64,000 nucleotides of DNA from a bacterium (GCA_965203325.1 OZ241875.1:352001-416000), one strand, 5' to 3'. Positions 19,488-27,020 are shown, counted from the stretch's first letter. The notes: generated by a model from the sequence alone, not told the origin. Numbers and translations are program-made.

Positions 19488-20522
19488 TCACAAATAATCC
19501 TTAACCTCCACCGTTTCACCCAGGCGCGAGCTCGCGTCCGCCGCGTAGACGACGGCCAGGTTCTCGTGCGCCACGCGGCCGTCGACTTCGGGCGTTCTAT
19601 CCCCGCGCACGCAATCGGCGAAATCTTCCAGCGCATCGCGGAACATGTCCCCCTCGGGCATGTCGTATACCGAATCTTCCCCGAGCGGGTCCCGGTCCAC
19701 ATGCAGGCGGATGGGTTCTGACGCCTTGGAGGGGTCGCGCCACTGCTGGCCGGTGATGCGGAAATGCGCGACGCCCTTCGTGCCGTGCACGTTCATGTGA
19801 AACGCCCAGGGGCACGCCCAGCCCCCGCCGACGTAGGAGAGCGCGCCGTTCTCGTGCTCCAGGATCATCATCGAGGTGTCATCCACGTCCTCGGTCGCAT
19901 AGGCGCGCTTTAACTTCGCGGTGACGCTCCTGATCGGCCCGTGCAGGTAGCGGAAGGTGTCGATGTGGTGGATGGACAGCTGGATGACCACGCCGGTGGG
20001 GTTGAGTTCGCGGCTCGAGCGCCATCTGTCGGGCGTGAGTTCCAGCCCACGCTCGGTGCAGAAGTTGCTCTCGCTCATCGAGATTTTCCCGATTTCGCCC
20101 GCGTCTATCAGCTCCTTCATGCGGCGCGAGACGGCCAGACGGCGCGCGCTGTGGCCCACCGCCAGCTTGACGCCCACGCCCTCCGCCGCATCGACGATGG
20201 CCCTTGAGTGCTCCAGGCTGTGCGCGATGGGCTTTTCGCAATAGACGTGCTTGCCCGCGGCGGCCAGCGCCTCGATGTGTTCCTTGTGGTTATGGTTGGG
20301 CGTCGTGAGTATGACGGCCTCGATTTCATCGTCGCTCAAAAGCGCCTCGAAGCTCTCCGCCTCTCTCGCGCCGTAGCGCTCCATGAAGGCGCGGCGCTTT
20401 TCCGCCGTGCGGCTGTAGCACGAGACGATCCTGATTTTACCGCCGCGAAGTGCTGCGTCGGCGAGCACGTTTGCCCAGCGGCCCAGCCCCATCGAGGCGA
20501 CGCGCAGGGGTTCGAACGACAT
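19488..20522 (-). CDS. Gfo/Idh/MocA family oxidoreductase
   Basis: MGLGRWA, TTPNHNH, GKHVYCEKP, HHID. Confidence 0.92.
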   Translation of the reverse strand: MSFEPLRVASMGLGRWANVLADAALRGGKIRIVSCYSRTAEKRRAFMERYGAREAESFEALLSDDEIEAVILTTPNHNHKEHIEALAAAGKHVYCEKPIAHSLEHSRAIVDAAEGVGVKLAVGHSARRLAVSRRMKELIDAGEIGKISMSESNFCTERGLELTPDRWRSSRELNPTGVVIQLSIHHIDTFRYLHGPIRSVTAKLKRAYATEDVDDTSMMILEHENGALSYVGGGWACPWAFHMNVHGTKGVAHFRITGQQWRDPSKASEPIRLHVDRDPLGEDSVYDMPEGDMFRDALEDFADCVRGDRTPEVDGRVAHENLAVVYAADASSRLGETVEVKDYL

Positions 20523-20575
20523 GTTGTTTCTCCTTGGAGTTAAATATCCGGGTGTCGGCTGAATCCAGTATTCAT

Positions 20576-20874
20576 GGGGTTGTTGAAAAGGCCCCCCATC
20601 GAGAGTGTTCGCCGGAATGAAGGGCGTTGTGATTTCTCAAAAGGATGTTCCCGTAGGGACGCTTCGTGAAGCGCCCGTTTCTCCAGTGGGTCGTTCGCGA
20701 ACGACCCCTACGTCACAACCAGAGACGGCGACCGTAGGGGCGACCCCCTGTGGTCGCCCTGCTCCCGCGCCCGTCCTGACGAAGGACAACCATGGAAGGC
20801 AGGACAGGCACGGGGGCCTGTCCCTACGAAAACCGCAAACCCTCCCACCCTCATCGGCTTTTTCCACAACCCCC
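20576..20874. mobile_element. Non-autonomous MITE-like element with IS-like terminal inverted repeats enclosing two REP doublets
   Basis: Left end GGGGTTGTTGAAAAGGCC; right end (reverse complement) GGGGTTGTGGAAAAAGCC. Four GTAG/CTAC-footed hairpins at 20653-20676, 20688-20711, 20734-20759 and 20802-20827. Confidence 0.75.
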
Positions 20875-20920
20875 TATGAGGCGAATGAAACCCTGCAAAC
20901 GCACTCCATCTCTGCCGGCG

Positions 20921-21379
20921 TCAGATACTCACCTGGAAATTGGGCAGACGCACGCCCCCTCCCGCATCCGCCGGGGCCGCGCTCAACTCCTCGAGCGTGG
21001 TTTCGCGCAGCGTCTTGTCGATGGCGTCTTCGAGTTTTTTCCAAAGCGTACGGCTTCCGCATACCGGGATGTTCGGGCACGGCGCCGAGGGAGGCGCATC
21101 GCCGCAATCGACGGGCTGAATCGTCTCGCCCACCGCGCAGAGAACGTCGCGCATGTTGATCTCAGAAGGCGGCATGGCGAGGATGTAGCCGCCTCCCGGC
21201 CCCCTCGTGCTGCTCACCAGAGAGGCCCTGCGCATTTTCACGAACAATTGTTCGAGATAGTGCTGGCTGATGCCGAGCTTGCCTGCAATCTGCGGCAGGG
21301 GCACGGGATGCGTCTGCGAATGCCTCGCCAGCTCAATCATGGCGAGCACGGCGTATCGCCCCTTGGTCGATATCTTCAT
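20921..21379 (-). CDS. Rrf2 family transcriptional regulator (IscR/CymR-like, three C-terminal Cys)
   Basis: MKISTKGRYAVLAM, ISQHYLEQLF, STRGPGGGY, DC..PC..VC. Confidence 0.93.
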   Translation of the reverse strand: MKISTKGRYAVLAMIELARHSQTHPVPLPQIAGKLGISQHYLEQLFVKMRRASLVSSTRGPGGGYILAMPPSEINMRDVLCAVGETIQPVDCGDAPPSAPCPNIPVCGSRTLWKKLEDAIDKTLRETTLEELSAAPADAGGGVRLPNFQVSI

Positions 21380-21417
21380 CGGCGGCATCCTCTCATCGTC
21401 TCTCCCTGCCCCGAACG

Positions 21418-22152
21418 CTAAACGAGCGCACCACGCCCTGAGGGAATTTTCGTCTGCTTGCTCCCGGCGAGCGCGCAGGCAGGACAATCCGGGTCCTGTG
21501 CCACGCGCACGCTCCCGACGGCGTTTTTGCGTAAATCGGCCGCCATCAGCCTGTTCGACCAGGCAGGCGCAAGCCCCTTGAGAACACGCAGCGCGTCGGC
21601 AGCCTGCGCCATGCCCACGAAACCGGCCACCGCGCCGAAAACACCCGCATCCCCGCAGTCGAGGCCGCGGGCGTCCTCGCCCTCCTCGCCCACCAGACAC
21701 CGCAGGCACGCGCTCCGGCCCGGTAGAATCGTCATCATCTGGCCGAAAAAGCGTAAAATCCCGCCCATCACCCACGGCTTGCCGGCTGCGGCGCAGGCGT
21801 CGTTCAGCGCGAGTTTGGCGGCCAGGTTGTCGCTGCCATCAACGATGACGTCATAGGGCGCGATGATTCTGGCGGCGTTCCGGCGCGTGAGTTTCTGGGG
21901 AATCATGTCCACCGCTACCTCGGCGGAGAGCCTGAATATGGAATCGGCGCCCGAGTCCACCTTCAGGCGGCCGATGTCCTCGGTCCGGTGGAGAATCTGG
22001 CGGGCCAGGTTGTCGAGCGTCACCACGTCGTGATCCGCAAGGCCGACCCGTCCCACGCCCGCCGCCGCAAGGGCGAGCGCCGCGGGACAGCCCAGGCCGC
22101 CGACCCCCACGATGAGCGCGGATGAGCGCGCCAGAGCGCTTTTTTCGCTCAT
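21418..22152 (-). CDS. MoeB/ThiF-family adenylyltransferase (catalytic motifs present, N-terminal Arg segment absent)
   Basis: GVGGLG, DHDVVTLDNLARQ, GRLKV, DGSDN, CLRC, DCGDAGV, CPAC. Start placed at MSEKS. Confidence 0.9.
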   Translation of the reverse strand: MSEKSALARSSALIVGVGGLGCPAALALAAAGVGRVGLADHDVVTLDNLARQILHRTEDIGRLKVDSGADSIFRLSAEVAVDMIPQKLTRRNAARIIAPYDVIVDGSDNLAAKLALNDACAAAGKPWVMGGILRFFGQMMTILPGRSACLRCLVGEEGEDARGLDCGDAGVFGAVAGFVGMAQAADALRVLKGLAPAWSNRLMAADLRKNAVGSVRVAQDPDCPACALAGSKQTKIPSGRGALV

Positions 22153-22223
22153 GCGCGCCGTGGATGCGCTCACGGACGCCGGCGGCGCTTCATCGGGCAA
22201 CCTCGCGCGTGGATTATGAAGGC

Positions 22224-22718
22224 TCACGCGCTTGTCTCCTCGAGAATTTCCAGATCGCTCTCGATAAAGGTCTTTTGCTCCGCGTCCCAGGAATACACCT
22301 TCTGCCCGAGCACCATGCCTTCCCGCACGCTCATGACGACGTGCTCGGCATCGGGAAACGCCGGGATATCCCCGAAAGGAACCGCCGCATCCACGTCTTC
22401 CTGCGAGAAATAGGCGTCCTCGTCCGGGTGGCTGTGGAATATGCCGCGAACCACCTCGCCCGCCTTCTCCGCTTCTCTCACGATGCGCTCGAACTCGAAG
22501 GGATCGATCAAGAATGCGCGCCGCGCCGTCCGCGGATAAAATTCGGGGTCTTTCTCGTGCATCTCGTTCTGCACGTTCCTGCAAGGCAGGAGGGCGAGCG
22601 ATTCCTCCTGTCCCCCCTTTGTGCGTGGTGGCCCTATGATCAGCCCGCAGCACTCATCGGGATACGCCTCGCGCGCGTGGCGGTGCATCGTCTCCACCTG
22701 TTCACGATTCAGACGCAA
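22224..22718 (-). CDS. JAB/Mov34 (M67, Mec-like) metallopeptidase
   Basis: AYPDECCG and HSHPDEDAYFSQED (HxH-x7-S-x2-D). TTG start after GGGAGG. Confidence 0.92.
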   Translation of the reverse strand: MRLNREQVETMHRHAREAYPDECCGLIIGPPRTKGGQEESLALLPCRNVQNEMHEKDPEFYPRTARRAFLIDPFEFERIVREAEKAGEVVRGIFHSHPDEDAYFSQEDVDAAVPFGDIPAFPDAEHVVMSVREGMVLGQKVYSWDAEQKTFIESDLEILEETSA

Positions 22719-22732
22719 ACCAAACCTCCCTC

Positions 22733-22908
22733 GGGTTGGTTGAAAAAGTTCTGATTCAGTGGTTTGGTTCGACGTATGTGAAGGTGTATGTCGGACATAT
22801 ATGTCCGACATATATGCGACCCTGCCCTTTACGCCTGCCAACCACGGGCCGCATATATGCGGCCCCTACACGAGCAATCGCGCCCAATGCGGGCCTGTTG
22901 AAAAAGCC
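22733..22908. repeat. REP-doublet element flanked by IS-end-like motifs
   Basis: GGGTTGGTTGAAAAAG ... TATGTCGGACATATATGTCCGACATA-TATGCGACCC ... GGGCCGCATATATGCGGCCCCTAC ... GGGCCTGTTGAAAAAGCC. Confidence 0.7.
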
Positions 22909-22962
22909 TTCGTCGGTCGGCTTGATTGCCCTCTCACCTACATGAAAACCAACCCCCCCTCC

Positions 22963-23901
22963 TCAGCGCGCTTCGCTCAGGTACCTGTCCCCCCCGTCGG
23001 GGAACAGGGTGACGATAACGCCCTTGCCTATCTGCTTCGCCACCTCGCGAACGCCCACGAGCGCAGCGCCCGCCGAATGCCCGATGAAAAGACCCTCTTC
23101 CTTGGCGATGCGCTCGGCGAGGTCGTAGCTTTCCTCGGTGCTCGCCAGAATCAGATTGTCGTGCACACCCTCATCGTAAATCTTCGGGCGAATGGCCGTG
23201 GGGATGTGCTTCATGCCCTCCAGGCCGTGAAACGATTCCGAGGGCATGACCGCATGCACCACGACGCCCGGTTTTCTCTCTTTCAGGCCGCGTCCCGTGC
23301 CCACCAGGGTGCCCGTGGTGCCGAGACCCGCAATGAAATGCCCCACGCGCCCGCCTGTCTGCTCCAGAATCTCTACAGCCGTGGTCTCGACGTGGGCGAG
23401 CGGGTTCGCCGGGTTGTCGTACTGACACGGCAGGAAATACTTCTCCGGCTCATCCTGATACATCTTCGCCGCCAGGCGCTGCGCGCCGTCCGAACCCTCC
23501 AGGGGATCCGAGAGAACGATATCGGCCCCGTAGCCCTTCAAGGTCGCCTTGCGCTCGTCGCTCGCGTTCGCAGGCAGGACGAGTCGGACGGGAACCCCGA
23601 GTGCTGCGCCGATCATGGCGTAGGCGATGCCGGTGTTGCCGCTCGTGGAATCGAGCAGAATCTTGCCGGGCCGCAACGCTCCCGTTTCCAGGCCGTCCTT
23701 CACCATGAAGAGCGCCGGCCTGTCCTTCACCGAACCGCCCGGGTTGAACCACTCCGCCTTGGCGAAGACCTCCACGTCCGGGAATTCGCTCTCGAACATC
23801 TTGATTTCGAGCAGGGGGGTGTTGCCGATACACTTGATGATTGGGGAATCCTCTAAATTTCTGAACGCGCTCGCGGGATTCGCCACCGTCGATTCGACCA
23901 T
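22963..23901 (-). CDS. cysM: Cysteine synthase family protein, CysM-like
   Basis: IGNTPL, NPGGSVKDRPA, STSGNTG, QYDNPAN, GLGTTGT, DGGDRYLS. Confidence 0.85.
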   Translation of the reverse strand: MVESTVANPASAFRNLEDSPIIKCIGNTPLLEIKMFESEFPDVEVFAKAEWFNPGGSVKDRPALFMVKDGLETGALRPGKILLDSTSGNTGIAYAMIGAALGVPVRLVLPANASDERKATLKGYGADIVLSDPLEGSDGAQRLAAKMYQDEPEKYFLPCQYDNPANPLAHVETTAVEILEQTGGRVGHFIAGLGTTGTLVGTGRGLKERKPGVVVHAVMPSESFHGLEGMKHIPTAIRPKIYDEGVHDNLILASTEESYDLAERIAKEEGLFIGHSAGAALVGVREVAKQIGKGVIVTLFPDGGDRYLSEAR

Positions 23902-23934
23902 TGATATGGCCCTCGCGCTTTGCTCCTGAAAATC

Positions 23935-24585
23935 TCAGGAAAAATTCGCACGCGCCTCCATCAGGCCGTGCGAAAAATCGAATCGGGCCTGCGCAGTCGA
24001 CCCCACTGTATCCATTTCATCCACCAGATGCCGCAAGGCTCTCGCGGCCAGCCATGCGCCCAAAGCGCCCTGGGCCGCCACCGTTGATGCGCCCCCTCCA
24101 GGCGGCGTCACGTCCGGCTTCCCGAAAACGCCGGGGCCCTCGTGAATTTCTCCTGACTCCCCACGGGAGACGCCTCGGAGCGCGATTTTCGCCGAAGCCT
24201 CGCATCTCTCATCAACCGGGGCTCCTTCATCGCCCAGCCGGATGAGGACGTCGAAAACCTCCCCTGCTCCCTCGCCCGGGCGAACGGGAACCAGCCTCGA
24301 ATCGGGATTGAGCCTCTTGAGGCCACTCCCCAGGCTGCCGCCAAAGAAGGCGGAGAGCGGCGATTTCGGCTTAAGCCCATCGCTCTCATCGAGCGGACAC
24401 CAGCCGATGCGTCCCACGCCCGCCGCCGCCAGATAGACCAGGGCGGTGAGCGCCGCGCTCTCCTCATCCTCCGAATATGCGATGAGGACGGAAGACGCCA
24501 GCAGGCGCTCCTGGCCGGCTCCCCCCACTTCGGGGAGAAGAATGTGGCGGCTGTAGCGCTGAATCTGCTCTTCGCTCAAGCCCAA
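23935..24585 (-). CDS. Degenerate ThiF/MoeB-like protein (RYSRH segment kept, ATP and Zn motifs lost)
   Basis: EQIQRYSRHILLPEVGGAGQERL, YLAAAGVGRIG, RLNP, FDVLI, GALGAWLAARAL. No GxGxxG, NLxRQ, DN or CxxC. Intact 216-aa frame with RBS. Confidence 0.8.
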   Translation of the reverse strand: MGLSEEQIQRYSRHILLPEVGGAGQERLLASSVLIAYSEDEESAALTALVYLAAAGVGRIGWCPLDESDGLKPKSPLSAFFGGSLGSGLKRLNPDSRLVPVRPGEGAGEVFDVLIRLGDEGAPVDERCEASAKIALRGVSRGESGEIHEGPGVFGKPDVTPPGGGASTVAAQGALGAWLAARALRHLVDEMDTVGSTAQARFDFSHGLMEARANFS

Positions 24586-24617
24586 GGGGCGACTCTCCTC
24601 TCGGAGGATGCGGACGA

Positions 24618-24896
24618 TTACAGGCCGCCCGCGATGGCCGGCACGATGGAGACCTCATCCCCATCGCTCACCGCCGTTCCCTCTCCCTGCAGAAAGCGGA
24701 TGTCCTCCTGGTTCACATAAATGTTCACGAAACGCCGCAGCTTGCCCTCCTCGTCATAGAGGCGCTGGCCGATGCCCGCGAACTGGCCCTCGAGGTTCGC
24801 GAGCACTTCCTTCACGTCCGCGCCCGCGATCTCCACGGCGTCCTGCTGCTGTGTGAACTCCTGCAAAGGTGTCGGAATACGAACCGTTACCGCCAT
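24618..24896 (-). CDS. MoaD/CysO-like ubiquitin-fold sulfur carrier protein, ending AIAGG-L
   Basis: VRIPTPL, RRFVNIYVN.EDIRF, GDEVSIVPAIAGGL*. Confidence 0.93.
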   Translation of the reverse strand: MAVTVRIPTPLQEFTQQQDAVEIAGADVKEVLANLEGQFAGIGQRLYDEEGKLRRFVNIYVNQEDIRFLQGEGTAVSDGDEVSIVPAIAGGL

Positions 24897-24949
24897 TTCT
24901 CTCTCCTGATCTGAAAACCCCGCTCTCCGGGGATGTTGAAGTAAGATTC

Positions 24950-25909
24950 CTAACGAAAATGCTGTTCCAGACTATAATATCTCTCCCAGCCGTCGGGAAT
25001 GACAACCACCACGTTTTCCTCGGGACTCATCCGCCGCGCCACCTCAAGAGCAGCACTTACCGCCGCTCCCGCCGAAATGCCTGCGGCCATGCCCTCTTCG
25101 CGGCTCAGGGCCTTGCTCATCTCATACGCCTCCGAATCGCTGACCGGCATCACCTCGTCGATGATCGCGCGGTTCAACACAGCGGGAATGAAGCCCGCGC
25201 CGATTCCCTGAATCTGGTGCGGGCCGGGCTCCCCGCCGGAAAGAACGGGAGATGCGGCGGGCTCCACGCCGATGACGAGCGTTTCAGGTCTTCTATCCTT
25301 CAGGACCTCCCCCACCCCCGTGATGGTGCCTCCCGTCCCCACGCCCGCCACGAAAGCGTCTATGGATTCCGCGCCCATATCGCGCAGAATCTCGCGCGCC
25401 GTGGTTCTGCGGTGGATTTCCGGGTTGGCCGGGTTGTTGAACTGCTGGGGCATGAAGTAGTCCGGGTTCTCCTCCAGGATGGCTTCGGCCAGTACTAGCG
25501 AGCCGTACATGCCGCCCTCGCTGGAGCTGAAGACCACCTCGGCCCCGTAGCCCGTGAGCAGGGAGTTGCGCTCGTGGCTCATGCTCTTGCTGAGCACGAT
25601 GATCGTCTTGTAGCCGCGAATCGCGCCGATGAGCGCCAGGCCGATGCCTGTGTTGCCGCTCGTGGGCTCGATGATCGTCCCGCCGGGCTTCAGGAGGCCG
25701 CGCCGCTCGCCGTCGAGCACCATGCTGAGCGCGATGCGATCCTTCACGCTTCCGCCGGGGTTGTATTGCTCGAGCTTGGCGAATACGCGCGCGCCGGACG
25801 CATCGGGCAGGCGTTGCAGCTGAACGAGGCTCGTGCCTCCGATGCGATCGATGAGCGAGGGAAGCGCCCTCAGAATCTGGGGCGGGCGACCCCGTGTTCC
25901 CAATGCCAT
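24950..25909 (-). CDS. cysK: Cysteine synthase A (O-acetylserine sulfhydrylase)
   Basis: NPGGSVKDRIA, EPTSGNTG, QQFNNPANP, GVGTGGT, HQIQGIGAGFIP. Confidence 0.93.
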   Translation of the reverse strand: MALGTRGRPPQILRALPSLIDRIGGTSLVQLQRLPDASGARVFAKLEQYNPGGSVKDRIALSMVLDGERRGLLKPGGTIIEPTSGNTGIGLALIGAIRGYKTIIVLSKSMSHERNSLLTGYGAEVVFSSSEGGMYGSLVLAEAILEENPDYFMPQQFNNPANPEIHRRTTAREILRDMGAESIDAFVAGVGTGGTITGVGEVLKDRRPETLVIGVEPAASPVLSGGEPGPHQIQGIGAGFIPAVLNRAIIDEVMPVSDSEAYEMSKALSREEGMAAGISAGAAVSAALEVARRMSPEENVVVVIPDGWERYYSLEQHFR

Positions 25910-25954
25910 GAAAGTGCCCTTCCAGTTCTTTTTATACGGACCCAGACGAGCGTG

Positions 25955-25988
25955 AGCCTATAATTCCCAAACAAATTTGTCAAGAATT
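25955..25988 (-). promoter_or_regulatory. Sigma70 promoter of the cysK operon overlapped by an imperfect palindrome (candidate Rrf2 operator)
   Basis: Minus strand TTGACA-17 nt-TAGGCT. The -35 lies inside AATTCTTG-ACAAATTTGT-TTGGGAATT. Confidence 0.55.
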
Positions 25989-26114
25989 CCATCTTAAAGA
26001 GATTTCCCGTTTTTTCTCCTCCTCGACATATTCCCGACATACTCCCAATATATTCTCGGTGTGCTACATTTTCATGTCGCATCGCCTTATGATGTGACGC
26101 GAAAGGAGAAAGAC

Positions 26115-26936
26115 ATGGCGAAACCCGAGAGCCTGCCCCCCATCGCCTTGACGATAGCGGGCTCGGATTCGGGCGGCGGAGCCGGGATTCAGGCGGATAT
26201 CAAGACTTTCAGCGCATTCGGCGTCTACGGCGCCTCGGTCATCACCGCGCTGACGGCGCAGAACACCGTGGGCGTGCAGGGGGTGCACGGCGCGCCGCCC
26301 GATTTCATCGCGGCGCAATTCGACTCGGTGTGCACGGATTTGGACGTGGCGAGCGCGAAAATCGGTATGCTCGCCACGGTCGACGTCATCGAGGTCGTCG
26401 CTGCGAAGCTCAAAGAGCACGCGCTCGCGCGCGTCGTGCTCGACCCGGTGATGGTCGCCAAAAGCGGAGACCGCCTGCTCGCGCCCGATGCGAGAGAGGC
26501 GCTCGTCGAAAAACTTTTCCCGCTGGCCGAGGTCGTCACCCCCAATACGGAAGAGGCGCGCGACATTCTGGAGACCGGAGAAATCGAAAACCTCGCGCAG
26601 ATGAGAGACGCCGCCCGGGCGCTTCATGAGCGCGGGGCGAAATGCGTACTGCTCAAAGGAGGCCACATCACCTACGGGGCTGTGGACATTTTCTTCGACG
26701 GCGAAAATGAGGTCGCGCTCGAGGGCAGGCGGGTCGACACCCCCCATACCCACGGTACGGGGTGCACGCTCTCTTCCGCCATCGCGGCGGGGCTTGCGCT
26801 GGGGGATTCCACCACCTCGGCGGTGAGGCGGGCGAAAGATTTCATCCAGGGCGCCATCGAGAACGCGCTCGCCATCGGAAACGGCCGAGGCCCGCTCAAC
26901 CACATGTACCGCCAACGCGAGGGAAAATCGCCATGA
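26115..26936 (+). CDS. thiD: Hydroxymethylpyrimidine/phosphomethylpyrimidine kinase
   Basis: LTIAGSDSGGGAGIQAD, DPVMVAKSG, LKGGH, HTHGTGCTLS. Confidence 0.96.
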   Translation: MAKPESLPPIALTIAGSDSGGGAGIQADIKTFSAFGVYGASVITALTAQNTVGVQGVHGAPPDFIAAQFDSVCTDLDVASAKIGMLATVDVIEVVAAKLKEHALARVVLDPVMVAKSGDRLLAPDAREALVEKLFPLAEVVTPNTEEARDILETGEIENLAQMRDAARALHERGAKCVLLKGGHITYGAVDIFFDGENEVALEGRRVDTPHTHGTGCTLSSAIAAGLALGDSTTSAVRRAKDFIQGAIENALAIGNGRGPLNHMYRQREGKSP

Positions 26937-27020
26937 GCCGCGTATTCTCGCGCAAACGGATTTTTCATATGACAGGCCACGATTTCACAAGCTGCGATTC
27001 TACAAACCGAAGGAGCCGTT

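Follow-up and report, generated by a model that had tools for sequence, protein, structure and literature searches.

Complementary active and degenerate ThiF-fold genes in a Nitrospinota cysteine operon suggest an asymmetric E1-like activator

MoeB and ThiF act as homodimers in which each subunit lends its N-terminal arm to the partner, and each dimer has two ATP sites. A seven-gene operon in a Nitrospinota bacterium raises the question of whether arm and active site can be parted between two different polypeptides. The operon lies in a window of 64,000 nucleotides (nt), which is the whole stretch of DNA analyzed here and to which all coordinates refer (GCA_965203325.1 OZ241875.1:352001-416000). 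Its genes are co-oriented on the minus strand in the order cysK-Ubl-B-cysM-mec-A-rrf2, where Ubl encodes a ubiquitin-like sulfur-carrier protein (Ubl) and mec a JAMM peptidase, and their identities are backed by Pfam and NCBIfam. Two of them, gene A (21418..22152, minus strand, 244 amino acids (aa)) and gene B (23935..24585, minus strand, 216 aa, TTG start), had been proposed from the DNA to form an obligate asymmetric E1 for the adjacent Ubl, which we refer to as the original prediction. Our analysis suggests that A and B probably pair as an asymmetric 1:1 dimer that has one ATP site and acts as an E1-like activator in a CysO-type protein-thiocarboxylate route to cysteine.

Gene A has the features of an intact ThiF/MoeB-type adenylyltransferase, with the glycine loop, the ATP/Mg residues and a zinc site of two CxxC pairs all present. 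Pfam ThiF matched A at E 9.4e-62, over profile positions 17-238 only. Residues 5-227 of A align with residues 27-248 of the E. coli MoeB chain 1jw9_B (E 1.6e-38), and A aligns with ThiF as well. The protein carries the glycine loop GVGGLG (G16-G21), D40/D42, NLARQ (N48-Q52), K64, DGSDN (D105-N109), C166 and the zinc-site pairs C149xxC152 and C223xxC226. Residues R51, K64 and D108 correspond to positions 73, 86 and 130 of 1jw9_B, which we take to be the MoeB ATP/Mg residues R73, K86 and D130. Across 16 A sequences, the glycine loop, D40/D42, NLARQ, DGSDN, the CxxC pairs and C166 are invariant or nearly so, and the four zinc-site cysteines are invariant in all 16. A retains the whole dimer helix. 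It consists of the ThiF domain only, with a short crossover region and no rhodanese domain.

What gene A lacks is the N-terminal arm. It begins 15 residues ahead of the glycine loop, a 71-nt spacer separates its start (22152) from the mec stop codon (22224-22226), and none of the three frames upstream of A encodes an RYxR[QH] segment. The sole genuine RYxR[QH] within positions 20000-27000 is the one in gene B, at 24558. All 19 A orthologs from the fetched loci begin 10-15 residues before the glycine loop and have no RYxRQ; 6 of the 19 loci have a stop codon 1-8 codons ahead of the A start, and several have the mec stop directly next to that start. RYxRQ is also absent from every listed protein that is at least 50% identical to A and has a printed N-terminus (P0429-P0451, P0459). 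Below 50% identity, most of the nearest relatives do have RYxRQ, placed about 37 residues ahead of the loop; P0461, P0463 and P0470, with starts unverified on DNA, also lack the segment. A-type genes are annotated with varying starts, giving called lengths of 244-283 aa, and the annotated starts are probably over-long. In DNA contigs of relatives (runs X3 and X5), 84-88 bases of 22133-22222, which covers the mec-A spacer and the first A codons, are swapped for 9 or 13 other letters. Such a strain-variable spacer and extreme N-terminus are consistent with the lack of a conserved coding capacity upstream of A.

Gene B shows the opposite pattern. It retains RYSRH (residues 10-14), YLAAAGVGR, LNP (92-94, within LNPD) and the C-terminal dimer helix (169-189 in the model). 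None of the 24 aligned B sequences has a glycine loop, NLxRQ, DN or any of the four zinc cysteines of the CxxC pairs, and unrelated residues of B stand at the positions where A has these motifs. B has no Pfam match at E 0.01, the ThiF model reaching only E 0.027 over residues 11-60, and the NCBIfam MoeB/MoeZ models match residues 3-67 alone (best E 3.6e-13). B is a whole, degenerate ThiF domain and not an N-terminal fragment. In an hhalign comparison (probability 90%, E 1.6e-6), a profile of the 24 B sequences aligned with the A family along residues 26-210 of B and 5-213 of A; the profile also aligned with the solved ThiF and MoeB over 4-211 and 3-213, respectively. The AlphaFold2 model of B had a predicted local distance difference test score (pLDDT) of 70.8 and a predicted template modeling score (pTM) of 0.73. 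Its top Foldseek matches were ThiF 1zud (E 1.6e-9, template modeling score (TM) 0.63), Uba4 and MoeB; the listed top matches ranged from E 1.6e-9 to 5e-7 and TM 0.60 to 0.65, with SAE1 and APPBP1 chains lower in the list at E about 1e-5.

Conservation within the B family is highest in the arm. Mean conservation is 0.84 over residues 1-30, 0.74 over 31-65, 0.78 in LNPD, 0.65 in the long C-terminal helix and 0.67 in the C-terminal strand region. Across the 24 sequences, which go down to 39% identity, 29 columns are invariant, R10, Y11, S12 and H14 among them, and none of the invariant columns is a cysteine. By alignment offset, the counterpart of MoeB Arg14 in B is R13. The original prediction had described an A without an RYxR segment, even in the gap upstream, and a B that mirrors it by keeping RYSRH, LNP and the dimer helix and losing the glycine loop, NLxRQ, DN and zinc cysteines. 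Both open reading frames were confirmed on the minus strand, every checked detail was accurate, and the absence of the arm extends to all 19 A orthologs.

We then examined how the two genes are distributed over 51 Nitrospinota genomes. B was found in 31 of them, full-length in 30 and split across two contigs in one (G009), and no B match contained an internal stop codon. The full-length homologs are about 216 aa long, with identities from 96% down to 39%. An A-type ortholog was present in 30 of the 31 B-bearing genomes, at no less than 53% identity in 29 and at 49% in G009; in the lone genome with B and without A (G022), B lies on a contig of 3,161 bases. A clear A type was found in none of the 20 genomes without B, which hold only the canonical rhodanese-MoeB (35-41% identity), nothing (G043) or one fragment (G040). 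This fragment is a 100-residue A-like piece at a contig start (48% identity), not assignable to the A or the canonical type. Of 20 fetched loci, 16 hold the full order cysK-Ubl-B-cysM-mec-A-rrf2; two more are cut by contig ends, one genome has it over two loci, and gene order is fixed in every fetched locus. The recurrence of the complementary A/B pattern in every orthologous locus examined indicates that it is more than chance.

Selection on the operon was assessed by pairwise dN/dS for 36 pairs within the genus. The median was 0.355 for B (range 0.26-0.45), 0.206 for A, 0.138 for Ubl, 0.13 for rrf2, 0.095 for cysM and about 0.09 for cysK. These values indicate purifying selection on B that is relaxed, which suits a partner without catalytic function. 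The same numbers bear on whether B is left over from a duplicated moeB and decaying, or whether the A/B pattern is an artifact of assembly or annotation. That B has the highest dN/dS in the operon and no Pfam match at E 0.01 would suit such an explanation. A dN/dS well below 1 speaks against it, as do B frames of constant length without stops in 31 genomes (allowing for the one split over two contigs), 29 invariant columns at identities down to 39%, and the same architecture in independent assemblies and in two other phyla, described below. We consider a remnant or artifact very improbable, and the present data already contradict it.

Next, A, B and ATP were folded together using two family alignments. 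The prediction scored 0.92, against 0.00 for the best of three controls. Of 157 solved complexes, 116 attain the score mark, as do 2 of 215 mismatched pairs; these counts give only a rough guide here because our own alignments were used and a ligand was included. The runs agreed in at least 94% of contacts, with partner pLDDT of at least 78. In the predicted complex, helix 169-189 of A pairs with helix 168-185 of B, to which B residues 198-213 at the C-terminus are added, and B residues 6, 9-14, 16-17 and 19-20 face A residues 46-47, 49-51, 53 and 56-58. The predicted interface is the canonical ThiF dimer interface, formed by the same helix as in the homodimers, and the RYSRH arm of B is placed on the NLARQ element of the ATP site of A. 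In each protein, residues at the predicted interface have a higher mean conservation than the remaining ones (0.72 vs. 0.58 in B, Mann-Whitney p 1e-4; 0.82 vs. 0.71 in A, p 0.002). The prediction shows a likeness to known dimers and supports A:B binding without amounting to proof of it; Arg13 of B may be positioned in the ATP site of A.

To look beyond Nitrospinota, we ran a profile of the B family against 1.84 billion representative proteins. Full-length B proteins appeared at E <1e-60 in three clusters only; further matches included many ThiF-like proteins with RYxR[QH] and without NLxRQ, often also without the glycine loop. Sorted by simple regular expressions, the 87 matches of at least 190 aa comprised 23 with RYxR[QH] and neither GxGxxG nor NLxRQ, 30 with GxGxxG and no NLxRQ, and 34 canonical proteins. 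Among the matches P0123-P0256, many metagenomic ThiF-like proteins of 190-300 aa have RYxR[QH] and no NLxRQ; most of these have both CxxC pairs, and some are annotated as adenylyltransferase. In nine B-like proteins from the sources covered here and below, Q7, R10, Y11, L17, G21, G24, Q25, L28, Y51, L52, A55-R59 and N93 are invariant.

Tight operons combining an RYxRQ-less ThiF, a Ubl and a miniature B (mini-B) were found in 3 of 151 sampled Myxococcota genomes, and one of the three also has rrf2, cysK and cysM. The ThiF protein of these operons begins at Pfam positions 15-22, and the Ubl ends in AIAGG followed by R or K. The mini-B proteins are 129-159 aa long and cover only Pfam ThiF positions 1-49 or 1-93, retaining the RYARH arm, YLAAAGVGR, LNPD and a short helix. 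In one of the three operons (G181, L074:3806-4708, minus strand), the RYxRQ-less active ThiF is fused to a C-terminal TusA domain (Pfam E 8.5e-14, residues 223-292), which sits where MoeZ-type enzymes carry their rhodanese domain. A fourth Myxococcota genome encodes a 396-aa fusion in which a proline-rich linker joins an N-terminal B-like domain, with RYSRQ and no glycine loop, to an active ThiF without RYxRQ, the latter matching Pfam positions 20-238 at residues 173-389. A search with the N-terminal domain of this protein found no fused relatives beyond its own cluster (two members, four contigs), other matches being ordinary or stand-alone ThiF-like proteins. Its neighbors encode peptidase M1, HD-domain and holin-like proteins, unrelated to sulfur carriers.

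In a Planctomycetota metagenome-assembled genome, the B-like protein P0125, an active ThiF without RYxRQ and a canonical ThiF are encoded on different contigs. The P0125 contig is 3.5 kb long and ends 207 bases past the gene. Read by eye from their translations, two neighbors of P0125 resemble an amidohydrolase and a zinc alcohol dehydrogenase, and the third is another ORF; they are uninformative. We built a tree of the ThiF domain with trimmed N-termini (40 rows, IQ-TREE, midpoint root for drawing only). The Myxococcota A-like proteins grouped with the active domain of the fusion (support 98/97), the Nitrospinota A family formed one group (88/59), and the Planctomycetota protein fell between these two. 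P0461 and P0463, whose starts are unverified, were nested among canonical enzymes. A single origin of the Nitrospinota, Myxococcota and Planctomycetota A-like proteins would be compatible with this tree, in which no strongly supported branch forbids it.

These relatives raise the possibility of an unrecognized prokaryotic class spanning several phyla, in which an arm-less active subunit is joined by a stand-alone inactive one that can shrink to about 130 aa or become fused, with one origin and a spread with the CysO-type operon in Nitrospinota, Myxococcota, Planctomycetota and perhaps Binatota. We put this forward tentatively, as possible and rather doubtful. In the proposed class, the minimum of about 130 aa may consist of the arm, the first beta-alpha unit, LNPD and the dimer helix. 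If the class is real, it would offer a living sulfur-carrier model of the subfunctionalization behind the inactive and active adenylation domains (IAD and AAD) of eukaryotic E1s and BilD, and would delimit the smallest portion of the partner that has to be supplied in trans to a ThiF-type enzyme. Look-alikes in the ESM Atlas fall in unnamed clusters, commonest in Binatota and Myxococcota, with scores of 0.94-0.95, and serve as leads only. A comparison of P0204 with metagenome contigs gave a 22-residue match only and was set aside.

Several points weigh against an A:B pair in which A would need B. According to passages of PMC13139853, the arginine fingers of MoeB (Arg14) and ThiF (Arg11) are not essential, and E. 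coli TcdA has none. Because the finger is dispensable in MoeB and ThiF and absent from TcdA, A might work without B. R13 of B is present in 23 of 24 aligned rows, P0059 having a histidine instead, and it is also His in the loci L024 and L031. By dN/dS, B is the fastest-evolving gene of the operon. The B-like and A-like genes of the Planctomycetota genome are not adjacent. The complex prediction may have passed through likeness to solved MoeB, ThiF and E1 dimers, which resemble the pair. Finally, A has no rhodanese domain.

The first two of these points would equally favor A as a self-sufficient homodimer without an arginine finger, with B as an accessory that docks, for example, Ubl, CysM or a sulfur donor; the whole dimer helix kept in A fits this as well. 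We regard this explanation as unlikely. It does not account for B being best conserved in the arm and in the ThiF dimer-interface elements, nor for mini-B proteins of 129-133 aa that retain little beyond these same parts. It is further opposed by the natural fusion of a B-like to an A-like domain, by a predicted A:B interface that coincides with the canonical ThiF dimer interface, and by the absence of an invariant cysteine from B. Within the A:B dimer, the role of B may be mainly structural, closing the ATP pocket and stabilizing A, since R13 is His in some orthologs and the finger is dispensable. The survival of mini-B proteins with only the arm and interface elements fits such a role.

B could instead be a regulatory decoy that pairs with A or with the canonical rhodanese-MoeB to give half-active or inactive dimers, throttling the activation of the sulfur carrier. 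B has kept the dimer interface and lost its catalytic residues, as a decoy would, and a complete rhodanese-MoeB is also present in the genome. The start codons could be read in the same way. The B start codon nearest the alignment start is a weak TTG in 16 of 19 full-length orthologs and in the window, GTG in two and ATG in one, which may point to deliberately low translation of B, although these starts were chosen by a script and the tally is not independent evidence. However, the arm that B alone supplies has been lost in all 19 fetched A orthologs and in the listed proteins at least 50% identical to A with a printed N-terminus, and this fixed loss fits complementation better than inhibition. 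Moreover, B co-occurs with A and not with the canonical paralog, for which type matches were found in nearly all 51 genomes, and the fused form would be inhibited permanently. A decoy role therefore appears improbable to us.

Taken as an A:B dimer, the system suggests the following route. A ThiS/MoaD-type Gly-Gly carrier, a JAMM peptidase and a CysM-type pyridoxal phosphate (PLP) enzyme occur together in the operon (Pfam ThiS, Prok-JAB and PALP). The Ubl (24618..24896, minus strand, 92 aa, ThiS/MoaD/SAMP-like) matches Pfam ThiS at E 2e-17 and NCBIfam SAMP1 at E 1.6e-14, under the cut-off of the latter model. Its C-terminus is AIAGG plus one extra residue (L) in the window, and AIAGG plus 1, 2 or 10 residues among the 19 orthologs and the window. 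Mec would trim the Ubl and expose the Gly-Gly end. A would bind ATP and Mg through the glycine loop, R51, K64 and D108 and adenylate the Ubl C-terminus. B, a dead paralog, would pair with A through the canonical ThiF dimer helix and its own C-terminal strands, its RYSRH arm lying across the NLARQ/ATP pocket of A in place of the arm that A has lost. The acyl-adenylate would then be converted to Ubl-COSH, with the conserved C166 of A as a candidate relay residue; the CysM-type enzyme would use Ubl-COSH, and Mec would then release cysteine. The Rrf2 protein may regulate the operon.

The closest known pathway is the CysO-CysM-Mec+-MoeZ system of Mycobacterium tuberculosis, reportedly a protein-thiocarboxylate route to cysteine. 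It shares with the Nitrospinota operon a Gly-Gly Ubl of the ThiS/MoaD type, a JAMM peptidase, a CysM-type PLP enzyme and a ThiF/MoeB-type activator. Unlike MoeZ, the Nitrospinota activator has no fused rhodanese and is split into an arm-less active and a dead subunit; in addition, the Nitrospinota Ubl has 1-10 residues after GG, and cysK and an Rrf2 gene belong to the operon. A candidate sulfur donor for A:B is the rhodanese-MoeB of the same genome. The genome of the window contains, separate from the operon, a complete 399-aa rhodanese-MoeB with its own RYSRH (G000:C1, L001:1405-2604, minus strand), and a third, weaker ThiF-family match (L003). Passages of Iyer, Burroughs and Aravind 2006 (PMC1779556) describe an operon type, 4c, that combines ThiS/MoaD, E1-rhodanese, JAB and cysteine synthase; they mention inactive E2-like domains and, in these passages, no inactive E1-like proteins.

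E. coli MoeB and ThiF align with A along its full length, share the fold of the B model and pair through the same helix as in the predicted A:B interface. In the homodimers, however, each subunit has both an ATP site and an arm, whereas A and B split these over two polypeptides and would have one site. Among the asymmetric E1s, SAE1-SAE2 (SUMO) and NAE1/APPBP1-UBA3 (NEDD8) are, as proposed for A:B, made of separate inactive and active adenylation polypeptides, the inactive one keeping the N-terminal arginine segment, and part of the Chambers 2023 preprint states that the eukaryotic IAD supplies a key arginine. In contrast to these enzymes, A lacks both a ubiquitin-fold domain and a catalytic-cysteine domain within the crossover loop. 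No E2 is present in the operon, which most likely yields a thiocarboxylate that feeds cysteine synthesis and not a protein conjugate. We found no specific sequence relationship of A or B to eukaryotic E1 subunits.

In BilD, as described in sections of 10.1101/2023.09.26.559546, an N-terminal inactive domain lends Arg9 to the C-terminal active domain, as in eukaryotic E1s. This bacterial protein thus has, as proposed for A:B, one active site completed by an IAD arginine, and the Myxococcota fusion shares its IAD-then-AAD order. BilD differs in being a single IAD-AAD-CYS chain with a mobile Cys domain and an E2 partner that serves protein conjugation and antiviral defense, whereas the Nitrospinota system consists of two genes parted by cysM and mec in a biosynthetic operon. 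BubCD is a homodimer according to excerpts of PMC11601596. Conjugating E1-E2 systems (Bil, Bub, CBASS Cap2, eukaryotic E1) have an E2 partner together with a catalytic-cysteine domain or an E1-E2 fusion, and differ in this from the Nitrospinota operon, which has no E2 and no catalytic-cysteine domain in A. In yeast, passages of PMC13139853 report a Tcd1-Tcd2 heterodimer in which the inactive paralog lends Arg59 to the active one. Here too, on that account, active and inactive ThiF-family paralogs pair and the arginine finger comes from the inactive one; unlike A and B, this ct6A dehydratase is eukaryotic and mitochondrial, acts on tRNA and has a full-length ThiF domain in both subunits.

The original prediction is supported by computation, within limits, and each computational check it proposed that was run came out in its favor. 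Asymmetric E1-like pairing of A and B is supported: B orthologs are conserved and free of stops under purifying selection, A and B co-occur in a fixed gene order, and the predicted complex, which clearly outscored its controls, sets the RYSRH of B against the ATP-site motif of A. The pair would be an E1-like sulfur-carrier activator, though, and not a conjugating E1, as there is no inserted Cys domain in A and no E2 in the operon; no E2/UBC-type Pfam domain was found in any of the seven operon proteins, the rest of the genome not having been searched for E2 families. An obligate need of A for B, and an Arg13 that enters the ATP site of A, are tentative suggestions in view of the reportedly non-essential fingers of MoeB and ThiF and of the histidine at R13 in some B orthologs.

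An asymmetric E1 architecture is already known from eukaryotes, from BilD in fused form and from yeast Tcd1-Tcd2. What is new here is the two-gene form in a bacterial sulfur-carrier pathway, along with relatives of it that are miniaturized or fused and an occurrence across at least three phyla. In the full-text literature searched, we found no description of a two-gene active/dead pair of the MoeB or ThiF type in bacteria; subscription journals, such as that of the 2009 survey of the E1-like superfamily, were outside the scope of the search. If the A:B dimer exists, it would show that duplication with complementary loss is able to produce the asymmetric one-site design of eukaryotic E1s within ancestral sulfur-carrier enzymes, without protein conjugation. 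The series of full-size B, mini-B and B-A fusion provides a handle on what a ThiF-type dimer needs its second subunit for, given that MoeB and ThiF can reportedly dispense with the arginine finger. There is also a consequence for annotation, as B-type proteins are now called hypothetical or ThiF-family adenylyltransferase and A-type starts vary.

The first gene of the operon, cysK (24950..25909, minus strand), encodes a 319-aa cysK-type cysteine synthase (Pfam PALP E 8.7e-77) that exceeds the cut-off of NCBIfam TIGR01139 (396.5 bits vs. 350.95), and its position is identical across all fetched loci. cysM (22963..23901, minus strand) encodes a 312-aa cysM-type cysteine synthase (Pfam PALP E 3.2e-63; NCBIfam TIGR01138 E 2.3e-102, 342.5 bits, below the cut-off of 394.2). 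The last gene, rrf2 (20921..21385, minus strand), encodes an Rrf2-family, IscR/CymR-like regulator (Pfam Rrf2 E 1.7e-36; NCBIfam IscR E 8.7e-37 and CymR E 7e-32, both under their cut-offs) and is syntenic in 17 fetched loci. mec (22224..22718, minus strand) encodes a JAMM/JAB metallopeptidase of about 164 aa (Pfam Prok-JAB E 6.8e-20) when the TTG at 22718 is taken as its start. This start is likely, judging from the sequence: GGGAGG lies directly upstream, similarity to orthologs sets in at about residue 42 of the long ORF, and the orthologs are 158-170 aa. The long ORF (22224-22841) over-extends the likely start because of a REP-like element in the cysM-mec spacer.

This spacer (22719..22962, no strand assigned) contains REP-like palindromic repeat units, identified by repeat search and reading of the sequence, and stands outside the enzyme system. 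A 236-nt query from it (22730-22965) gave 61 matches in the genome of the window, and contig depth over 22759-22927 was several-fold above that of the flanks in all four runs.

Two RNA libraries from a single study gave contigs, 90-95% alike to the window, that span cysM-B (23681-24367) and B-Ubl-cysK (24424-24994 and 24506-25045). They give a weak hint that B is transcribed together with its neighbors; RNA libraries may contain DNA, such contigs are no proof of a single transcript, and at 90-95% likeness their source is relatives. Many parts of the operon, including most of A, are uncovered by these contigs, and we conclude nothing from the gaps. On the opposite strand beside the operon, an ORF at 26061-26936 (plus strand) resembles a hydroxymethylpyrimidine/phosphomethylpyrimidine kinase of the ThiD type, as judged by eye from its translation.

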